Source: an uncultured Thermoleophilia bacterium (GTDB lineage Bacteria > Actinomycetota > Thermoleophilia > RBG-16-64-13). From it: 64,000 bases of DNA. The DNA lies in contig CAVYVU010000017.1 of NCBI GenBank assembly GCA_963772095.1, forward strand, positions 162,201 to 226,200. Reading direction: 5' to 3'. Positions 56,734 through 64,000 of the stretch are shown piece by piece. The first letter of the stretch is position 1. Each line of letters starts with the position of its first letter. Under the pieces are notes generated by a model. That model worked only from the letters and a program-made list of their open reading frames with translations, was not told where the DNA came from and ran no database searches. The translations under genes were made by a program, and so were the position numbers.

Positions 56734-56993
56734 CCGGCCGCGGGATCGCCTGCACCACTCCCGCTACTTACCAGCCGGGAACGAACACCATGACCAAGTG
56801 GTGATCGTCAGGCAAGCGCTCTAGACGCCATCCATTCTGCAGCCGCCCTGCCCCAGCCCTGACGCGTCGGCTCAACGCTCTCCTTTGGTTTCGCTTCCTC
56901 ACTCCGGGGAATCTTTGGTCCGTCTGACTCATTCTGACCCCGGGGATGCAAATGGCAGCTAGCGGCTCGCTCCTTCTTGGAAAGGTGAAGAGG

Positions 56994-58598
56994 ATGAAGA
57001 GCTACGAGAGGCTCATCCTTCTTGTGCTTCTTGCCCTCGCGGTGATTGTTGCGCTTTCGGGTACCGCCCACGCCGCTGGTTTCTCGGATGTCCCGCCAAG
57101 CCACCCGTACTTCACCGCCATCTCGGATCTGGCCGGGCGCCAGGTGATAAACGGCTTTACGGACGGCACCTTCCGCCCCGACAACCCGGTAACCCGCCAG
57201 CAGTTCGCCAAGATGATCGTCAAGTCGCTCGGTCTTCCCGTCTCCGCGGCCGACACCGATCCCTTCACGGACGTGCCGACCGGCCAGGACCCCAGCGACC
57301 CTTTCTACCCTGACAAGTACGTGGCAGTGGTCTGGAAGAACGGCATAACCGCGGGGAAGACAGCCACCACCTTCGCGCCGGCCGACCACCTTACGAGTGC
57401 TCAACTCGTCACCTTGGTGGCTCGGGCCGCCCAACTGCCCGATCCCCCCGCCGACTACACTCCCCCCTTCGGTGACTTCTCTCCCGTGCACTACCCCTGG
57501 GCAAGGAAAGCGGCCTATGCTGGGCTCTTGGCTGGTCTGCAAGGGTTGGGAGAGACTTTCGACTTCACCAAGGACGCGACGCGTGGGGAATGCGCCCAGC
57601 TCCTGCATAACCTGCTCGTCCACAACCAAACGGGCAACTTCTGGAGAAACCTAAACCCCTCCGGCACCGTTCCACCTGCCCGTTACGGCCATTCTATGGT
57701 CTACCTCTCGGCCGGCGTAAGCGGAAAGACGATCCTGTTTGGAGGGGAGACCACCGTCGGGCCTGCGAACGACACCTGGGTCTACGAGCGAACCACCAAC
57801 ACCTGGACCGAGCTGAGTCCGTCCGGCCCATTGCCCTCGCCTCGCCAGGGCCAAGCCATGGTCTATGATCCGGCCAATGGTCAGGTGATCATGTTTGGAG
57901 GGCAAGGCTCTGCCGGCTACATGAACGACACCTGGGCGTACGACCCGGCGGCCAACACGTGGACTAACCTCAACCCGTCCGGTCAGTTGCCCTCGGCTCG
58001 GGTGTACCATTCGATGGCCTTTGACCCGGTGAGCGGAAAGGTGATCCTTTTCGGGGGGTTCGGCGGAGCACCGGACTTCTTATTCGACACCTGGGCCTAC
58101 GACCCCAGCGCCAACACCTGGACCCAGCTTCACCCTTCAGGCAGCGTGCCGCCCGCCCGCGACCTCTCAGCGATGGCCTACGACCCTCCCACGGCCAAGA
58201 TGATCCTCTTTGGGGGGCTCGGCACCGGTGGTGACCTGAACGACACCTGGGCTTATGACCCTGCCGCCAACTCATGGACCAACCTTAACCCCGCCGGTCC
58301 ATTGCCGACCGCCCGCAGGGGACATGCCATGGTCTACATATACGTGCAGAACGGCGGGAAGATGATCATGGAGGGCGGCAGAGCCGGCAGATCTCCAAAC
58401 GACGAGGACCTCGACGACACTGAGGTGTTCGATCCCTTTACTTTGCGCTGGGTGGAACTCGCGCCCAGGGGCCCAGTACCCGCCGCCCGTGACGGTCACG
58501 CCATGGTCCTTGGTGGGTCGGCCGGCGAGGTGATCCTCTTCGGAGGGATCGGTAACGCCGACACTCCCTTTGCCGACACCTGGGCTTACACCCCCTGA
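56994..58598 (+). CDS. S-layer homology (SLH) domain protein with a Kelch-repeat beta-propeller
   Basis: Signal peptide ...GTAHA. SLH repeats (FSDVPPSHPYFTAISDLAGRQVINGFTDGTFRPDNPVTRQQFAKM). About 6-7 Kelch-like repeats (NDTWAYDPAANTWT.L.PSG.LP.AR..H.M). Confidence 0.85.
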   Translation: MKSYERLILLVLLALAVIVALSGTAHAAGFSDVPPSHPYFTAISDLAGRQVINGFTDGTFRPDNPVTRQQFAKMIVKSLGLPVSAADTDPFTDVPTGQDPSDPFYPDKYVAVVWKNGITAGKTATTFAPADHLTSAQLVTLVARAAQLPDPPADYTPPFGDFSPVHYPWARKAAYAGLLAGLQGLGETFDFTKDATRGECAQLLHNLLVHNQTGNFWRNLNPSGTVPPARYGHSMVYLSAGVSGKTILFGGETTVGPANDTWVYERTTNTWTELSPSGPLPSPRQGQAMVYDPANGQVIMFGGQGSAGYMNDTWAYDPAANTWTNLNPSGQLPSARVYHSMAFDPVSGKVILFGGFGGAPDFLFDTWAYDPSANTWTQLHPSGSVPPARDLSAMAYDPPTAKMILFGGLGTGGDLNDTWAYDPAANSWTNLNPAGPLPTARRGHAMVYIYVQNGGKMIMEGGRAGRSPNDEDLDDTEVFDPFTLRWVELAPRGPVPAARDGHAMVLGGSAGEVILFGGIGNADTPFADTWAYTP

Positions 58599-58894: not shown

Positions 58895-59698
58895 TTACGA
58901 GGCCATTCCCAGACCGGCGCAGATTTCCACGAGTGCATCCTTGAGGTGGGTGTAGTCTCCCGCGAAGATCGGTTGGCACTGGTGGGCCGGCCGTTGGCCC
59001 TGCCATACCCGAGCCGCAAACGCCATGCAGGTCGACTCGCCACAAAGGCCGCAGTTGGTGCGCGGCAGGCGTTTGAGAATTTCCAAGACAGGCGGGCGTT
59101 TGCGCATCTCGTAGCAAGGCTCGATCTCTGTGCGCCGCGCCCAAACCGCGTTCACCTGGCGGCGGATGGCTTCCAGAGTCCGCCAGGCGTCCACCAGTTC
59201 ATCGGCCTTGGCGACCGTGATCCGCCTCTGGTAAAGAGAGATCATGCGGTAGGCATCCATGAACGTGAGGGTGGGCCCATTTCGGTCATACGAGGTGCTG
59301 TGCATCTCCGCGTTCAAATAGGGAAAGACCTCGGTCAGGTCTCCGCTGATGTGAGCGATGAGGCGTATCTTCGTTGGGTCGGCCACGCACGGAGCGAGAA
59401 CCATGATGGCGGCCGTTCCGAACAGGTCTTCCGGAAACTCGGGCGGGGGGGCGCAGGGGATAGAGATAGCCGCCGGCCGGTAGTCCGCCCAGCCGGAGCA
59501 GACGAAGTCGCCGTCACGTGGAGCAAGCCGTAGGCGCGTCTCGGCGTCCATTGCCAAAGACGGCACACCGACCCGGGCAAATCCGGGATCGGGGGAGATG
59601 ATTTCGTAGTCCAGGTCCAGATCGTCAAGCGCACGCTTGGCCTTGTCGAACTCGCAGCGCTTAGGAAATGTGGTCAGAGTGCTGGCCAAAATGGTCAC
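58895..59698 (-). CDS. Uncharacterised protein with a C-terminal RnfB/CdhD-type Fe-S motif
   Basis: LPRTNCGLCGESTCMAFAARV matches the 'putative Fe-S cluster' domain motif (LPxTNCGxCGxxxC). The N-terminal 200 aa were not recognised. Confidence 0.65.
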   Translation of the reverse strand: MTILASTLTTFPKRCEFDKAKRALDDLDLDYEIISPDPGFARVGVPSLAMDAETRLRLAPRDGDFVCSGWADYRPAAISIPCAPPPEFPEDLFGTAAIMVLAPCVADPTKIRLIAHISGDLTEVFPYLNAEMHSTSYDRNGPTLTFMDAYRMISLYQRRITVAKADELVDAWRTLEAIRRQVNAVWARRTEIEPCYEMRKRPPVLEILKRLPRTNCGLCGESTCMAFAARVWQGQRPAHQCQPIFAGDYTHLKDALVEICAGLGMAS

Positions 59699-59754
59699 GC
59701 CCCTCTCGCGCTACAGAAGCATCCGATCGCTTAGAGCCGGATCTCCTTCGCAGG

Positions 59755-60018
59755 CTATTCCAGCCCGGCCTCTCTCAGGGCCCCGATCAGTCCTTCCTTG
59801 GTGGGGCAGACCCCCACGAAGCGCACCAGGTCCCCCACAATGATGGCGGGGGCAGAAGACAACTTGAGTTCCTCGTAGCGCGCGTCACGGCCCTGGTGAT
59901 AGACGACATTCATCTGATCCCCATATGTCTCGGCCACTCCATCAATGAGCCGTCTGACGGCCACCCCGCCCGAGCAGGCAGGGACGGAGAGGAACACTTC
60001 CACCTTTATCGGATCCAT
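59755..60018 (-). CDS. Thioredoxin_3-like small protein, monothiol variant (CSGG in place of CxxC)
   Basis: 87 aa; VEVFLSVPACSGG...SSAPAIIVGDLVRFVGVCPTKEGLIGAL. Co-linear with the two upstream paralogs. Confidence 0.6.
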   Translation of the reverse strand: MDPIKVEVFLSVPACSGGVAVRRLIDGVAETYGDQMNVVYHQGRDARYEELKLSSAPAIIVGDLVRFVGVCPTKEGLIGALREAGLE

Positions 60019-60281
60019 AGCCCGCCCTCCCGGAGCGCGTTGTTCATGGTGCCCTCATCCGGGGAGGTGCCCTCTATCTTGATGACGCCGTTGATGACGG
60101 CCGCCGGCACGCAGGACAGGTTGTACTCGTCATATTTCTCCAACGCGTCCAGGCCGACGTACTTCTTCACCACAAGCTCCTCCGCTGGATACTTCTCCGC
60201 ATAGCGGTCGGCCATGGCGAGAATGGCGACACAGCCGGGGCACGGGGGCTCTCCGCTGAACACTTCCATGAGTACAGGCAC
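60006..60281 (-). CDS. Thioredoxin_3-like small protein (CPGC)
   Basis: 91 aa; MEVFSGEPPCPGC...VPAAVINGVIKIEGTSPDEGTM. GTG start behind AGGAGA. Confidence 0.7.
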   Translation of the reverse strand: MPVLMEVFSGEPPCPGCVAILAMADRYAEKYPAEELVVKKYVGLDALEKYDEYNLSCVPAAVINGVIKIEGTSPDEGTMNNALREGGLWIR

Positions 60282-60282
60282 G

Positions 60283-60540
60283 TCAGTCTCCTAGCTCGGC
60301 TCGGAAGATCCTCTCGAATTCAGGCTCCTCTGCCACTCTGCCTTGAGCCACCAGCCTTCCGTTCACCACCACGGCGGGCGTGGCCATGAGTCCTAGTTGC
60401 AGCCCTTCGGAAGAGAGCGCCGAGAGCTTCTCCACGGTCACTTGGCCGGGGAATTTGGCCGCCGCCCTCTTCGCCGCTTCCTCCGTCTTCTTGCATTTCA
60501 CGCAAGGCGGCTCACTGCCGAACACCTTGACCTCGATCAA
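60283..60540 (-). CDS. Thioredoxin_3-like small protein (CVKC)
   Basis: About 86 aa; IEVKVFGSEPPCVKC...TPAVVVNGRLVAQGRVAEEPEF. TTG start behind GAAAGGTGG is proposed; the ORF is open to 60600. Confidence 0.7.
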   Translation of the reverse strand: MIEVKVFGSEPPCVKCKKTEEAAKRAAAKFPGQVTVEKLSALSSEGLQLGLMATPAVVVNGRLVAQGRVAEEPEFERIFRAELGD

Positions 60541-60553
60541 GACGTCCCACCTT

Positions 60554-60952
60554 TCATTTCGTCGTATTTGTGACCGCTGCGCAGCAGGACTCGCTCGCAT
60601 CTCCGCCCGGAGTGCGACCGGCAGCCTTGAGCGTTAACCACTCTTCTAGGCGGCCGCCCAATTCGCGCTTTCGGTCCTCGCCAATCGCTTTCGAGAGTGC
60701 GGCGAGAATCGTCGCCTGCTCCAGGGGCAGACTGCGTGAGATCCGATAGTGCATCCACAGGCCGTCCCGGCGATCCTCGACCAGTCCGGCGTGGTGAAGG
60801 TACCGCAAATGACGGGAAGCCTTAGATTGGGTGAGCTCGAGCGCCCCCACGAAGTCGCACACGCAAAGCTCCTCCCGCTCGAGAAGAAGAGTAATGATCT
60901 GCAGTCTCGTCTCGTCAGAAAGTGCCTTGAAGGTATCGGCCAGGTCTTCCAT
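60554..60952 (-). CDS. arsR: ArsR/SmtB family metalloregulator with an ELCVCD (As(III)-type) site
   Basis: FKALSDETRLQIITLLLEREELCVCDFVGALELTQSKASRHLRYLHHAGLV. There is an extra C-terminal CC pair. Confidence 0.85.
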   Translation of the reverse strand: MEDLADTFKALSDETRLQIITLLLEREELCVCDFVGALELTQSKASRHLRYLHHAGLVEDRRDGLWMHYRISRSLPLEQATILAALSKAIGEDRKRELGGRLEEWLTLKAAGRTPGGDASESCCAAVTNTTK

Positions 60953-61002
60953 GTGTCCCTCTGTGCTCTTGCGAGCGATCTGAAATCGCCTCTCAACCCC
61001 GA

Positions 61003-61031
61003 GTGTCTGCCAGTATAAGCGCCTACTCGGT
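61003..61031 (-). promoter_or_regulatory. Sigma70-like promoter for arsR (TTGGCT-17 nt-TATACT)
   Basis: Read on the minus strand about 45 nt upstream of the arsR ATG. An inverted repeat GCGAT-N5-ATCGC (about 60974-60988) lies between the -10 element and the start codon. Confidence 0.4.
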
Positions 61032-61136
61032 TGTAGCCAATGGAAGTAGTGCCACGCGCGCTCTTAAAGCTGCCTCCACCTGCTCCACTGAAGGGTAACC
61101 CTGCATGACGCCCGAACCGGGCACCCGGTACCGTCG

Positions 61137-62039
61137 TCACCCGGAGTTGATTGGAGGTGGCTCCGTCTCTAGGTCCACGCCGTCGATGGTGATGGTGGGA
61201 GAGCCACGCAGACCTACTTCCCGCGCCATCACGTCGCCAACCACCTCGACGATCTCCAAAGTGGCGTCGAGGCCCAGCGCTTCGACAGCCTCGCGAACAC
61301 CGACCTCAGCGGGTGGCGCATTGTCACACACTGATGTATGCAGGATCCTGATCACAGTCATTCGCATCTCCCTAAGGCTTGGGCTCCAAGGGCCCATGAG
61401 CCGGTGCGCGGCTTCTAGGGCCGCCCGCTCGATGACTTGCCGGCCGGCATCGACGCGCAGTTCCCGCAATGTCACCAGAAAGTCACGGTGCGTGCGACCT
61501 CCCCGGTACTCCGGCTCGCGCGTCGGCTGCCGGAGCACGGCATCAGCGAGATCGTAATCAAAGCCTACCAGGACGGTGCCGTGCAAGAGCACGGATTTCC
61601 AACGGCGGCACTGAGCATTACCGGATATCTTCCGATCTCCCACGACGACATCGGAGGTGCTCGCTGGGGCGCCTCGGATACCCAAGATGTCCAGTAGACT
61701 GCAGACGAGATCCGCCCCAAAGCCATAACTTGCCTTGAGTCCGGCCAGTGAGGGGCCGGGCACGACGAGCGTGTAGTTCAGAACGTCTTCGGTCTGCAGC
61801 ACGCTGCCACCGCCCGAGACCCGGGGGAGCACCTCGACCCCGAGCCGCGCACACTCATCGAGATACACCGTCTGCTCAGGCCGCTCGCTCGCCCCCAATA
61901 CTACGGCAGGCGGGCCGCCCCACCAGAAGCGCAGCGTGCGCTCACCGGATCGGCCGGCCGTGCGGGCCATCGCCTCGTCGATGTCAAGATTCTCTCGGAC
62001 GGTCGGCGCCGTCGCCCAGAAGACGGCTGTGTTGGTCAT
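61137..62039 (-). CDS. Lipoate/octanoate-protein ligase-like (BPL_LplA_LipB domain) with a C-terminal thioredoxin-fold-like tail
   Basis: RFWWGGPPAVVLG, RVSGGGSVLQ, GDRKISGNAQ (catalytic Lys) and LLHGTVL. Then in frame: MTVIRILHTSVCDNAP...LRGSPTITIDGVDLE. The ATG overlaps the upstream ORF's stop (ATGA). Confidence 0.75.
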   Translation of the reverse strand: MTNTAVFWATAPTVRENLDIDEAMARTAGRSGERTLRFWWGGPPAVVLGASERPEQTVYLDECARLGVEVLPRVSGGGSVLQTEDVLNYTLVVPGPSLAGLKASYGFGADLVCSLLDILGIRGAPASTSDVVVGDRKISGNAQCRRWKSVLLHGTVLVGFDYDLADAVLRQPTREPEYRGGRTHRDFLVTLRELRVDAGRQVIERAALEAAHRLMGPWSPSLREMRMTVIRILHTSVCDNAPPAEVGVREAVEALGLDATLEIVEVVGDVMAREVGLRGSPTITIDGVDLETEPPPINSG

Positions 62040-62230
62040 CCGGCCAGCAAGTCCCGATACGCCACCGGGACCGCCGCTTTGTAGCACGGCTCCTCTTCCG
62101 GCGCCACGTGATGGTGGATCTTCACCATTTCCGGCAACTCAGGAACGTTCTCGCCATCCGCGGCCAATCCAACTTCCGCGCACTGACTAAAGACAGGAGG
62201 AAGAGAGACCGGCGACATCCGCGTCCTCAC
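62036..62230 (-). CDS. Small ORF (up to 64 aa), or a frameshifted C-terminus of the upstream DGC protein
   Basis: It ends in an ATGA overlap with the ligase start and overlaps the 3' end of 62187..62762 in another frame. No family was recognised. Confidence 0.3.
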   Translation of the reverse strand: MRTRMSPVSLPPVFSQCAEVGLAADGENVPELPEMVKIHHHVAPEEEPCYKAAVPVAYRDLLAG

Positions 62231-62762
62231 CCTTCAGGTGGATCCTGCCGGAGAGAGGGCGCTGCCTGCAGGCGCATACCGCCTCAGCCTCCGGTTCGAC
62301 CGATTCGCTCGATGTCGTCTCGGTAATGGCTGCCTCGCTCATCGTCTGATTCATCACAACGTCGACCGCAGCCGCGATCCGTTCGGCGACCACCCCAACC
62401 GCCTCATTGTCCACCGCGCCTCGCGAGCGCGACGACCGACTGCACCCTAGGGTGGTCGTGCCCAAGATGTCCGACACGACCAGCGCGCCGGCCACCGGCC
62501 CCCCATGTTTCTCGGTTCCCCACTTGGCACACTGCTTCTCGCAGCCATCGATCGTGATCGTAGGGTGCGTGCGGGCGAAGTTGCGCTCGCCTTCATTGCC
62601 GGCAAGAAACAAGGGCAGGCACAGGGTCACGGTCACCTCGGAGCGTAGAGATTCAAGCACTCGGCGGGTGGCGAGACGCGATATAGTCCCCTCCGGGATC
62701 TCCTCGCCGCTGCAGGAGATGATGCCGACTTTGATAGTAGGCGTGCTGGTGGAATCGCTCAT
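62187..62762 (-). CDS. DGC-domain protein (putative Cys4 metal-binding) with a C-terminal extension
   Basis: KVGIISCSGEE...THPTITIDGCEKQCAKW. The start ATG overlaps the upstream stop (ATGA). Confidence 0.7.
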   Translation of the reverse strand: MSDSTSTPTIKVGIISCSGEEIPEGTISRLATRRVLESLRSEVTVTLCLPLFLAGNEGERNFARTHPTITIDGCEKQCAKWGTEKHGGPVAGALVVSDILGTTTLGCSRSSRSRGAVDNEAVGVVAERIAAAVDVVMNQTMSEAAITETTSSESVEPEAEAVCACRQRPLSGRIHLKGEDADVAGLSSSCL

Positions 62763-63217
62763 CGCCCCTTCTCCTTGCCGCTCCCCAGACGAGCCGCTTC
62801 GGCCACCACGGTTTCCGCGATTTCTCGGGCGATCACCCATCCGTCTTTGGTCAGAGTCGAGCCTGAACCTGGTTGCGCTCCGCGATGGTCCTTGAGCGCC
62901 GCCGCAACTTGCACAGCCTTCGCGACCGTTCCGCCCGCCAACGTCACGTTCTTTTGCGCGCAAGCCTTGCCGCAGCCGTCGATGGTTATGCAGCGGTGCG
63001 TTTGCACGTCCGCTACGGCTTCGGGATCGCCTTTCACGAGCAACGCCAAGCACAGTGTGTCGGTCTCCTTCGGCGCCAACTCGTCCGTCACCAGGTAGGT
63101 GGCCTCGCGGCTGAGGAGCCCATGCACCTTGCCGATCCCACTGCAGGGAATGATCAGCACCGGATTTTCACTTGCTCCGCGTTTCACTGTTCTACGTATT
63201 CCTTCATGTAATCGCAT
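62759..63217 (-). CDS. DGC-domain protein
   Basis: VLIIPCSGIGKVHG...THRCITIDGCGKACAQKN. Confidence 0.7.
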   Translation of the reverse strand: MRLHEGIRRTVKRGASENPVLIIPCSGIGKVHGLLSREATYLVTDELAPKETDTLCLALLVKGDPEAVADVQTHRCITIDGCGKACAQKNVTLAGGTVAKAVQVAAALKDHRGAQPGSGSTLTKDGWVIAREIAETVVAEAARLGSGKEKGR

Positions 63218-63239
63218 GTGGCCACCGCAACTCTTCGCT

Positions 63240-64000
63240 TCACTCTTCGGCCGCTTTGCGCTCGAGAGTCTCGGCGTAGGCGGGTCCGTCCAGGAGAAGT
63301 TCCCGGTCATTTTGCCAGTCGGAGAGTTCGATCTCGGCAAGCCAACCACGACCATAGGGGTCTTCGTTCGCCAGCTCCGGGATTTCTTCGACCGCTGGGT
63401 TCGTAGCCACGACGGTGCCGCTCACAGGCGACACGATTTCGAAGACGGCCTTAGTCGATTCCACCGAACCCAACTCGCCGAACTGCTCCACTACAGCGCC
63501 GGCCTGGGGCGGATCAAAATAGTTGATGTCGGTGAGGCGCTGCTGCATGTAGTCGGAGATGCCCACCCGCGCCCGGGCGTCGGCCACCCGGACCCAGACG
63601 TCGTTTTCGTTGAAAAGGTATTCGCTCTTCGGTATGCGGAACTCGAACTTGTCGTACACCACGGTCAGGAATTCCGCCGGCGCCTCCCAGTCCGCAGCCG
63701 TTTCCGCTGCGGCAGCCGGAGCGTTCAGCGAGGAGATGAGGCCATCGGCGATGGTCTGGACCAGCGCCATCTCATTCGGCCCCAGTCGAAGCGAATCCTC
63801 CAGGGACTGACCGGCAGCCTTAGCGACTTCCGAAACCAACACTTTGCGCTCGGGCTTCGCTCGCATCGTTGCCGCCAACTTGCTCGCGCAGCGCGTGGCG
63901 CAGCCGTCAACAACGACCAGCGCATTTTCGGCCAGGAGCTTCTTGTAGCGGACCGGTGTGCGGTTCAGAAGCACCGGGCAGACGATCTCGGCCCCGGTCT
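63240..64000 (-). CDS. DGC-domain :: GcvH-like lipoyl-carrier fusion (5' partial; continues beyond the window)
   Basis: The frame is open to the window edge (..GAEIVCPVLLNRTP..ALVVVDGCATRCASK). An Ala-rich linker follows, then VWVRV..RVGISDYMQQRLTDI..GSVESTKAVFEIVSPVSGTV..NEDPYGRGWL (H-protein pattern with the lipoyl-Lys position). Confidence 0.75.
   Translation of the reverse strand, partial: TGAEIVCPVLLNRTPVRYKKLLAENALVVVDGCATRCASKLAATMRAKPERKVLVSEVAKAAGQSLEDSLRLGPNEMALVQTIADGLISSLNAPAAAAETAADWEAPAEFLTVVYDKFEFRIPKSEYLFNENDVWVRVADARARVGISDYMQQRLTDINYFDPPQAGAVVEQFGELGSVESTKAVFEIVSPVSGTVVATNPAVEEIPELANEDPYGRGWLAEIELSDWQNDRELLLDGPAYAETLERKAAEE

Follow-up and report, generated by a model that had tools for sequence, protein, structure and literature searches.

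Lipoate has, to our knowledge, very few known roles, and every newly found lipoyl carrier with a ligase of its own, such as sHdr-LbpA or GcvH-L, has founded a field of study. Arsenite classically attacks dihydrolipoyl groups, the lipoyl-dependent thiol peroxidase systems include the mycobacterial Lpd-DlaT-AhpD-AhpC, and in the relay of Bacillus and Staphylococcus GcvH serves as the lipoyl donor. The ArsEFG system, reportedly described by Chen, Zhang and Rosen in 2019, is said to comprise neither a lipoyl carrier nor a ligase, DGC or Fe-S proteins. The sHdr-LbpA sulfur-oxidation system has its own ligase, sLpl(AB), together with LipS1 and LipS2 (Cao et al. 2018, PMC6067878; Tanabe et al. 2023, PMC10332631), and lipoyl-dependent reduction of OsmC/Ohr is established according to the statement in PMC10332631 that cites Cussiol 2010 and Nyvltova 2016. 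Here, we describe a gene cluster of an uncultured Thermoleophilia bacterium that encodes a DGC::GcvH lipoyl carrier and a dedicated ligase, located at the end of a stretch of 64,000 nucleotides (nt; contig CAVYVU010000017.1, positions 162,201 to 226,200), hereafter termed the window. Our analysis suggests that it represents a widespread, undescribed operon of soil bacteria that resides in arsenic-resistance islands and gives lipoic acid a new job in arsenic detoxification.

An alignment of the ligase was used to scan one genome per GTDB species, which yielded 79 loci, and their six-frame open reading frames (ORFs) were searched with the proteins of the window and of L002, a locus on a long contig; the evidence comes almost wholly from metagenome-assembled genomes (MAGs). 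In 39 distinct loci we observed the same ordered core, consisting of an ArsE-type Thioredoxin_3 (Trx_3) protein, an Fe-S protein resembling the N-terminal domain of HdrA (u116), a HgcB-like ferredoxin, the DGC::GcvH fusion, two further DGC proteins and the LplA-type ligase. Thus, the neighbourhood is conserved and not the chance juxtaposition that the initial annotation named as the outcome that would speak against its idea. The hosts belong to Terriglobia, Bryobacterales, Solibacteraceae and Acidobacteriaceae (Acidobacteriota), to some Armatimonadota and to unclassified MAGs. The ligase is present in all 39 loci, the ferredoxin in 38, u116 in 36 and the Trx_3 gene in 35. On the long contigs L002 and L003 the order reads ArsR, DGC, a protein of 152 amino acids (aa), DsbD_2, Trx_3, the 116-aa protein u116, the small ferredoxin, DGC::GcvH (281 aa), DGC, DGC (233 aa) and ligase. 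Within 10 kb of the core, or 2.5 kb in the case of ArsR, we counted ArsR in 23 of the 39 loci, ArsF and ArsG in 18 each and ArsM in 12. An LMWP-ArsC-like protein occurs in eight core loci and OsmC in three.

The locus L083, which encodes a 95%-identical relative of the window fusion, shows what is likely to lie beyond the window edge. There, the gene next to the operon is divergent, and the first two operon genes encode u116 and the ferredoxin; we infer on this basis that the edge cuts off only these two genes. Exact-sequence look-ups with ArsR, the ligase and the fusion of the window had yielded either a 2.5-kb Logan contig only or no match, so that L083 served for the operon head. The initial suspicion that the row might be the tail of a standard shdr-lbpA or glycine-cleavage locus did not hold for this relative, where two Fe-S genes stand at the head. 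It is u116 and the ferredoxin that matter most for the mechanism. The gene orders indicate that the ArsR and Trx genes, which form the head of the operon in Acidobacteriota, have been moved behind the ligase in the lineage of the window.

Like sHdr-LbpA, the cluster combines a GcvH-like lipoyl carrier and a dedicated ligase with Fe-S redox proteins outside central metabolism, and one of its partners, u116, resembles part of HdrA. Unlike sHdr-LbpA, it has no HdrB/C, DsrE/TusA, LipS1/S2 or LipT in the annotated loci, it stands among arsenic genes, its carrier is close to true GcvH and fused to DGC, and its ligase is a bare LplA catalytic domain. The GcvH-L/LplA2/macrodomain/SirTM operon of Staphylococcus and Streptococcus is likewise linked to stress and contains a second H-like protein with a second ligase; however, our cluster lacks macrodomain and sirtuin genes in the annotated loci, and its H-domain shares 21% identity with GcvH-L versus 34-39% with true H-proteins. 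No hdr, lipS, macrodomain, sirtuin or gcvT/P gene was found in the annotated or ORF-read loci L002, L003, L090 and L095. The Pfam lists of the core loci L002 and L003 contain neither radical-SAM genes nor GcvT or GcvP, macrodomain and sirtuin genes are absent from these lists and from the ORFs of the window, the 10-kb flanks of L002 and L003 hold no CCG/Hdr genes by Pfam, and the head of L083 consists of u116 and the ferredoxin only. The initially noted absence of partners of these systems therefore holds for the Pfam-annotated L002 and L003 and the operon head of L083, and by its gene content the cluster falls outside sHdr-LbpA, GcvH-L/SirTM and the glycine cleavage system.

The cluster overlaps with two other systems, ArsEFG and the lipoyl-dependent peroxidases, and is identical to neither. 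As in the peroxidases (Ohr/OsmC, the Trichomonas system of OsmC with H and L, and Lpd-DlaT-AhpD-AhpC), we propose that a dihydrolipoyl arm would reduce a small thiol enzyme; OsmC is found in the variant loci L090, L095, L043 and L045, and Lpd in L090. In contrast to these peroxidases, the presumed input consists of Fe-S proteins and not of Lpd in 36-38 of the 39 loci, DGC has no counterpart there, the commonest neighbours are ars genes, and the window lacks OsmC. With ArsEFG the Acidobacteriota operons share an ArsE-type Trx_3 protein, ArsF and ArsG, all above the NCBIfam cut-offs and named according to NCBIfam, and the family of the 267-aa Fe-S protein that ends the window cluster (FeS-267) often comes next after ArsG; in the window itself only an ArsE-like Trx below the cut-off is seen. 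Moreover, ArsG is a DsbD_2/CcdA-type membrane protein whose neighbours on either side are a Trx-like protein of the cytoplasm and a CxxC protein that is secreted, as in CcdA/DsbD relays, although here the cytoplasmic donor would be the lipoyl/DGC system and not thioredoxin reductase with thioredoxin. Full-text searches of the open-access literature retrieved no work in which lipoate ligases or H-proteins are connected with PF08859/DGC or with arsM, in line with the initial statement that a pairing of such a carrier and ligase with DGC domains and ArsR/Thioredoxin_3 genes is not known to be described. The sole mention of PF08859 found there concerns an unknown gene in an ArsR-ArsP-ArsE-DGC operon (bioRxiv 10.1101/2022.10.17.512643).

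The partners of the core link it to arsenic. In L002 the ArsE/ArsF/ArsG set is complete above the cut-offs: the secreted 152-aa CxxC protein belongs to the ArsF family (NF040494, 107 bits versus a cut-off of 60), ArsG is represented by the DsbD_2 protein (NF040495, 279 versus 200) and the Trx_3 protein is MTH895/ArsE (TIGR00412, 101 versus 62). By homology, the set is present in 18 of the 39 loci. The ArsM proteins reach 345-361 bits with NF008823 (cut-off 263). In L014 and L025, both scored with NCBIfam, ArsM and an ArsE-type Trx_3 form one chain immediately upstream of u116, and by the criterion of a shared stop-free ORF we observed such an ArsM::Trx_3 fusion with an intact CxxC in eight loci (L006, L007, L014, L019, L023, L025, L028 and L030; e.g. 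L025:6264-7352).

Variant loci carry other thiol enzymes. In L095 the order is ArsR, Trx_3, a stand-alone GcvH, two intact DGC genes, OsmC, an FeS protein and a ferredoxin, and the locus also encodes a CcdA-like protein and periplasmic thioredoxins in addition to OsmC. L090 comprises GcvH, two DGC genes, OsmC, dihydrolipoyl dehydrogenase (TIGR01350, 475 bits versus 409), LipA (358 versus 310), the ligase, an FeS protein and a further DGC gene. In the Armatimonadota loci the ligase is preceded by periplasmic thioredoxins and a membrane protein of CcdA-like type and followed by an OsmC-related protein. Altogether, OsmC-family genes adjoin the core in L043, L045, L090 and L095 and lie within 10 kb of it in L007, while L153 combines OsmC with two DGC genes.

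The full-length DGC::GcvH fusion has 281 aa (P0121), of which 29 codons lie past the window edge. Its four DGC cysteines (C8, C36, C62 and C66) and the lipoyl-lysine K212 within the motif VESTKAV are invariant across 50 homologues. The AF2 model has a pLDDT of 83.8, and its H-domain superimposes on solved H-proteins with a TM of ~0.9 at 34-39% identity, whereas the identity to the solved GcvH-L (5a35) is 21%. With the GcvH equivalog TIGR00527 it scores 105.9, under the cut-off of 115.85. The H-domain is a predicted lipoyl carrier, in which the lipoyl-lysine is present in the conserved hairpin. In public data the fusion has more than 1,200 matches and DGC_c, the third DGC protein, more than 2,000, some of which may cover a single domain only. 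The fusion was found on no plasmid in plasmid searches, and the plasmid matches to DGC alone (Ralstonia, Cupriavidus, Klebsiella) show no ars context. One of these, L164 on the Klebsiella pneumoniae plasmid pRWS292.s1 (NZ_CP110524.1 306087-307757, IncFIB/IncHI1B), has a stand-alone DGC protein next to a MarR regulator and a flavin reductase, with cadR and a gene for a cation transporter nearby, and thus represents a different, non-ars context of DGC.

The ligase matches LplA-B_cat (PF21948, E = 4e-31), and its K137 in RKISGNAQ is invariant in 39 sequences. The profile identifies the large subunit of Thermoplasma LplA (2ars, 1e-18) as its best solved relative, with LipM reaching only 5.5e-7; NCBIfam LplAB gives 63.9 bits (cut-off 550), and the ligase of the cluster amounts to a catalytic domain of 215-260 aa. 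Among 120 ligase homologues listed, only the 300-aa protein of the window carries a C-terminal tail, the other 119 being 212-276 aa in length and 53-80%, mostly 55-65%, identical to it. The initial assignment of this tail to the thioredoxin fold found weak support, with Trx_3 at 0.009 and the NCBIfam 'DF family (seleno)protein' at 2e-11, below its cut-off. In addition, we considered distant relatives with a GcvH gene ~3.2 kb upstream as lbpA-lipS clusters and rejected this assignment, as they are ordinary lipA-gcvTHP operons. In L062 (4130-10708) and ~20 similar loci of Omnitrophota and Planctomycetia, the order is lipA-gcvT-gcvH-gcvPA-gcvPB with a short single-domain LplA-type ligase as the last gene. 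This glycine-cleavage-operon ligase is the apparent evolutionary source of the arsenic-linked one. Since these distant ligases belong to the same clade and stand in lipA-gcvT-gcvH-gcvPA-gcvPB-ligase operons, carrier and ligase were probably recruited jointly out of a glycine-cleavage operon.

The protein u116 (L002:7421-7771) is Cys-rich, has 116-125 aa and contains five invariant cysteines. Across 26 further loci, three of which come from Armatimonadota or their vicinity, its copies are 80-94% identical to that of L002, which hints that nearly all of its surface residues may be constrained. It is far better kept than its partners, the ligase being 52-62% identical to that of the window. A u116 profile aligns with the N-terminal Fe-S domain of HdrA (7bkb_A residues 14-100) at E = 0.019 with the cysteines in register. 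The best NCBIfam models for the 2x[4Fe-4S] ferredoxin are HgcAB-like and HgcB, both below cut-off.

All three DGC copies of the window exceed the gathering cut-off of PF08859 (E = 5e-16, 3.5e-13 and 6e-9), and the four-Cys set is invariant in two paralogue families, the fusion and DGC_c; DGC_b, the second DGC protein, is orthologous to a gene for 137-142 aa in L002, L003 and L083. The DGC fold is a flavodoxin-like alpha/beta sandwich. Matches of the DGC domain and of the C-terminal domain of DGC_c to the folds of LMW-PTP, lumazine synthase and ArsH (E ~0.01-0.1) were set aside as too generic for functional inference, and a sequence search with DGC against the PDB gave no match.

The 64-aa ORF (62036-62230), initially taken for a separate gene, turned out to be the frameshifted C-terminal domain of DGC_c, which forms one chain of ~233 aa in L002 and in more than 100 database homologues and to which the small ORF aligns at residues ~170-230. 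The family alignment shows eight invariant cysteines, namely the DGC set C13, C44, C70 and C74 and a second set, C103, C151, C153 and C181. In the window, the 191-aa part carries the DGC Cys4 site with C103, C151 and C153, while the small ORF carries C181 and a conserved YH motif. An indel in the CT-rich, microsatellite-like tract ggtctctcttcctcct at ~62190-62205, within 62187-62230, separates the two and thereby parts C181 from its three partners. Because an independent Logan assembly of another run (contig L001) shows the same split, with two mismatches and no indels over 2,521 nt, it is probably genuine in the source population. The resulting ORFs encode 191 and 60 aa, and the ATGA coupling to the ligase is retained. 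Programmed +1 frameshifting at CTT-TAG was rejected in favour of the CT-tract indel, as it would skip the conserved PLIF motif. The split could reflect pseudogenisation, a tolerated split or slippage-prone phase variation.

Behind the ligase the window contains a second module consisting of ArsR, three Trx_3 paralogues and the 267-aa Fe-S protein. ArsR combines ELCVCD in helix alpha3 with a C-terminal CC pair, and it scores 93.7 bits with an NCBIfam metalloregulator model, above the cut-off, and 87.5 bits with the ArsR model PRK10141, below the cut-off of 97. The CVC site together with the CC pair points to induction of the As(III) type. Among the thioredoxins, paralogue A, whose start is uncertain (the gene caller predicts 80 aa), is the most ArsE-like (TIGR00412 MTH895/ArsE, 50 bits versus 62); B is 33% identical to A and 36% to C, and C matches the MJ0307 family (1.4e-6).

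The Fe-S motif does not end the last protein, as initially stated: LPRTNCGLCGESTC occupies residues 211-224 of 267. In this protein an N-terminal domain that is optional in the family precedes a conserved central domain (PCxAD, PYLNA) and a four-Cys FeS domain of the CFeSP/RnfB type, in which C216, C219, C224 and C241 are invariant in the family, and it matches the N-terminus of the CFeSP large subunit (4djd_C, 4e-5). The family comprises 786 clusters in two forms, one of ~265 aa and one of ~180 aa that lacks the N-terminal domain. The module does not stand beside the core in the Acidobacteriota loci. A metagenome scan showed, however, that relatives of FeS-267 adjoin Trx_3, DGC, ArsF-ArsG (often directly after ArsG), ArsR and ArsM, and therefore the second module is in the same gene guild as the core. 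The short form lies directly downstream of ArsG in L122, L124, L129-L132, L134, L145 and L155, in the manner of a fourth member of the arsEFG cluster that has yet to receive a name.

The window ArsR and Trx paralogues (58895-60952), the ligase tail (61137-61364) and the H-domain also gave sub-threshold NCBIfam matches to models named 'Tso' (TsoR/TsoC/TsoX), SaoT, 'DF family' and 'GcvH_rel_desulf' (seleno)protein, which serve as a lead only. They suggest a curated, apparently unpublished sister system of Desulfobacterota that joins ArsR-type, thioredoxin-like and GcvH-related proteins. As several of the sister families are named '(seleno)protein' in NCBIfam, they fit redox catalysis better than metal chelation.

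Based on gene content, we tentatively favour a reading, which may well prove wrong, of the cluster as a thiol-redox relay under the control of ArsR that has a dedicated lipoyl carrier at its centre and serves arsenic-detoxifying enzymes. A thiophilic metalloid such as As(III) would release the CVC-type ArsR, and the single-domain LplA-type ligase would place lipoate or octanoate on K212 of the DGC-fused H-domain. Reducing equivalents would enter via the two Fe-S proteins at the operon head, the HdrA-N-like u116 and the HgcB-like ferredoxin, or, in one variant locus, via dihydrolipoyl dehydrogenase in their place; the 267-aa FeS protein of the window could provide a second entry point. From there, dithiol/disulfide exchange would pass through the Cys4 sites of the three DGC modules and the swinging arm of dihydrolipoate to ArsE-type thioredoxins, with ArsM, LMWP-type ArsC, CcdA-like ArsG leading to periplasmic ArsF, and OsmC as possible clients. 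In the model of the Rosen laboratory, the catalytic disulfide of ArsM reportedly needs re-reduction in every cycle. The domain identities, the invariant residues, the conserved order of the genes and their association with ars genes and with OsmC, Lpd and LipA are observed; we infer which way the electrons flow, which metal or cluster the DGC modules contain and which clients are served. Two of the readings offered initially, the lipoyl-arm dithiol relay and a link to metalloids, gain support because of ArsE/ArsF/ArsG, ArsM::Trx_3, the LMWP-ArsC-like proteins and OsmC, Lpd and LipA of the variant loci.

A bolder and doubtful reading would have DGC, the HdrA-N-like protein and the ferredoxin act as a novel, Fe-S-driven reductase of a protein-bound lipoyl disulfide, and the swinging lipoyl arm would itself take up As(III)/MAs(III) and deliver it reduced to ArsM or efflux. 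If true, lipoate would have a catalytic role in metalloid biotransformation, unlike its roles in acyl or aminomethyl transfer, sulfur oxidation and peroxide reduction.

Several observations weigh against the relay. ArsM, ArsC, ArsF, ArsG, OsmC and Lpd are not in view in the window, and its Trx paralogues remain below the ArsE cut-off and are ~22% identical to ArsE of Acidobacteriota. The match of u116 to HdrA is coherent but marginal. Foldseek with DGC retrieved no informative structural neighbour, the best hits (E ~0.01-0.04) being generically flavodoxin-like, and the four DGC cysteines could bind Zn, an Fe-S cluster or arsenic itself. Moreover, the frameshift in DGC_c may impair the local copy of the cluster. 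Thermoplasma LplA requires LplB or a C-terminal accessory domain for the synthesis of lipoyl-AMP. The window ligase is a catalytic domain without such a domain: Lip_prot_lig_C gave no match in it at E<=0.01, nor at E<=1 in eight of the 11 genes of the L002 operon (ArsR, DGC_b and the ligase not included). Lipoylation by this ligase alone therefore stays a prediction.

The strongest rival, though unlikely, holds that the dihydrolipoyl arm and the Cys4 DGC modules bind As(III) or methyl-As(III), either to sequester it from essential lipoyl enzymes or to pass it to ArsM or efflux, with the Fe-S proteins and thioredoxins merely keeping the thiols reduced. The classical affinity of arsenite for dihydrolipoyl groups agrees with this, as do three to four DGC paralogues per locus, all with four invariant cysteines, the physical linkage to ArsM and ArsG, the ArsR regulator with its CVC site, and the presence of DGC in the ArsR-ArsP-ArsE-DGC operon of P. 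mercurii (bioRxiv 10.1101/2022.10.17.512643). However, a passive binder ill fits two dedicated Fe-S carriers as well as Lpd and OsmC in the variant loci, a stoichiometric decoy would be costly, and the binding of arsenic is itself hypothetical. We rank the binder second since it gives no account of the Fe-S proteins, Lpd or OsmC.

It is rather improbable that the cluster is instead a general defence against peroxide or disulfide stress of the Lpd/H-protein/OsmC (or AhpD) type, which travels with ars islands and whose ArsR-family regulator senses oxidants or thiol-reactive compounds. The Trichomonas OsmC, H and L system and Ohr are precedents, OsmC stands beside the core in four loci, within 10 kb in L007 and with DGC in L153, Lpd occurs in L090, and the window has no arsenic enzyme in view; yet OsmC is present in only three of the 39 core loci, while ArsM, ArsF, ArsG and ArsC-like proteins are far commoner and ArsM is fused to the operon thioredoxin in eight loci. 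Very unlikely is a spare lipoylation relay, in which an arsenic-inducible H-protein and ligase re-supply lipoyl groups to arsenic-poisoned 2-oxoacid dehydrogenases. The H-domain is indeed near genuine GcvH (34-39% identity, TM 0.9), the ligase clade derives from ligases of ordinary lipA-gcvTHP operons, and L090 contains LipA together with the ligase, but none of the ORFs read was noticed to encode an amidotransferase of the LipL type, and three DGC proteins, two Fe-S proteins, the Trx_3 genes and the fusion of carrier to DGC would remain unexplained. The persulfide module of the initial annotation, here taken as sulfur handling akin to sHdr-LbpA with u116 as remnant of an Hdr-type complex, is highly improbable: apart from the profile match between u116 and the N-terminal domain of HdrA and the combination of a lipoate-binding protein with its own ligase, the H-domain is GcvH-like and not LbpA-like, the context is arsenic and not sulfur, and HdrB/C (CCG), DsrE, TusA, rhodanese, LipS1/S2 and LipT are absent from the Pfam-annotated neighbourhoods of L002 and L003, the other loci not having been screened.

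The features of the window cluster are listed in Table 1. The genes form a tight, unidirectional row on the minus strand between position 58895 and the edge of the window, and the initial domain calls were borne out by Pfam hidden Markov models (DGC three times, GCV_H, LplA-B_cat, HTH_5, Thioredoxin_3 three times and FeS), with NCBIfam in agreement. Of the ten genes counted initially, the row as such stands, but the number falls to nine, one being split by the frameshift. The ATGA overlaps are likewise confirmed (DGC_b/DGC_c at 62762-62759; small ORF/ligase at 62039-62036), and the intergenic gaps of less than 60 nt measure 1-56 nt, with the exception of the 184 nt preceding ArsR. In this region, an imperfect hairpin spans the ligase stop (61097-61148), and one sigma70-like site was found at 61040-61012 versus 0.8 expected, i.e. 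at chance level; the region may serve as an internal promoter of the ArsR module. A terminator scan of the cluster found none. The genes beyond the FeS protein are on the plus strand and convergent on the cluster. A convergent ORF at 56946-58598 encodes a secreted 550-aa protein with an N-terminal S-layer-homology-like segment and Kelch-type repeats, as judged by eye from the translation. The S-layer-homology-like segment hints at a host other than a typical member of the Acidobacteriota.

Table 1. Features of the DGC::GcvH/ligase cluster, in order from the window edge (positions in the window)
Feature	Position	Strand	Evidence
DGC::GcvH fusion, 3' 252 codons in window	63240..64000	-	Pfam DGC 6e-9, GCV_H 1.2e-29
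DGC_b, second DGC protein, ~152 aa, PCSG...LCLAL...DGCxxxC	62759..63216	-	Pfam DGC 3.5e-13
DGC_c, third DGC protein, N-terminal 191 aa, premature end by frameshift	62187..62762	-	Pfam DGC 4.9e-16
DGC_c C-terminal domain, +1 frame (initially the 64-aa ORF)	62036..62218	-	alignment to 233-aa homologues
LplA-type lipoate-protein ligase catalytic subunit, 300 aa, P0001	61137..62039	-	LplA-B_cat 4e-31
Monothiol thioredoxin-like tail of the ligase, ~75 aa, lineage-specific	61137-61364	-	weak Trx_3 and DF-family matches
Intergenic region, 184 nt	60953..61136	-	imperfect hairpin and one sigma70-like site
ArsR/SmtB repressor, 132 aa	60554..60952	-	HTH_5 1.3e-14
Thioredoxin_3 paralogue A (CVKC)	60283..60543	-	Trx_3 1.9e-14
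Thioredoxin_3 paralogue B (CPGC)	60006..60281	-	Trx_3 4e-7
Thioredoxin_3 paralogue C (CSGG, monothiol)	59755..60018	-	Trx_3 1.4e-3, below Pfam cut-off
Fe-S protein, 267 aa, final gene of the cluster	58895..59698	-	FeS PF04060 8e-13

The cluster adds a third dedicated carrier-ligase pair, one that is widespread in Acidobacteriota of soil and peat and tied, even by fusion via thioredoxin, to an arsenite methyltransferase. If the proposed relay is true, ArsM and other thiol-dependent arsenic enzymes would be reduced independently of the arsenic-sensitive NADPH-thioredoxin reductase route, and DGC (PF08859), the HdrA-N-like family and an FeS (PF04060) family of ~800 clusters would each receive a first function. 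Forecasts of how arsenic is methylated in the soils of paddies and peatlands would be affected as well. Moreover, the dihydrolipoyl group, the very group that arsenite attacks, would become part of the defence.

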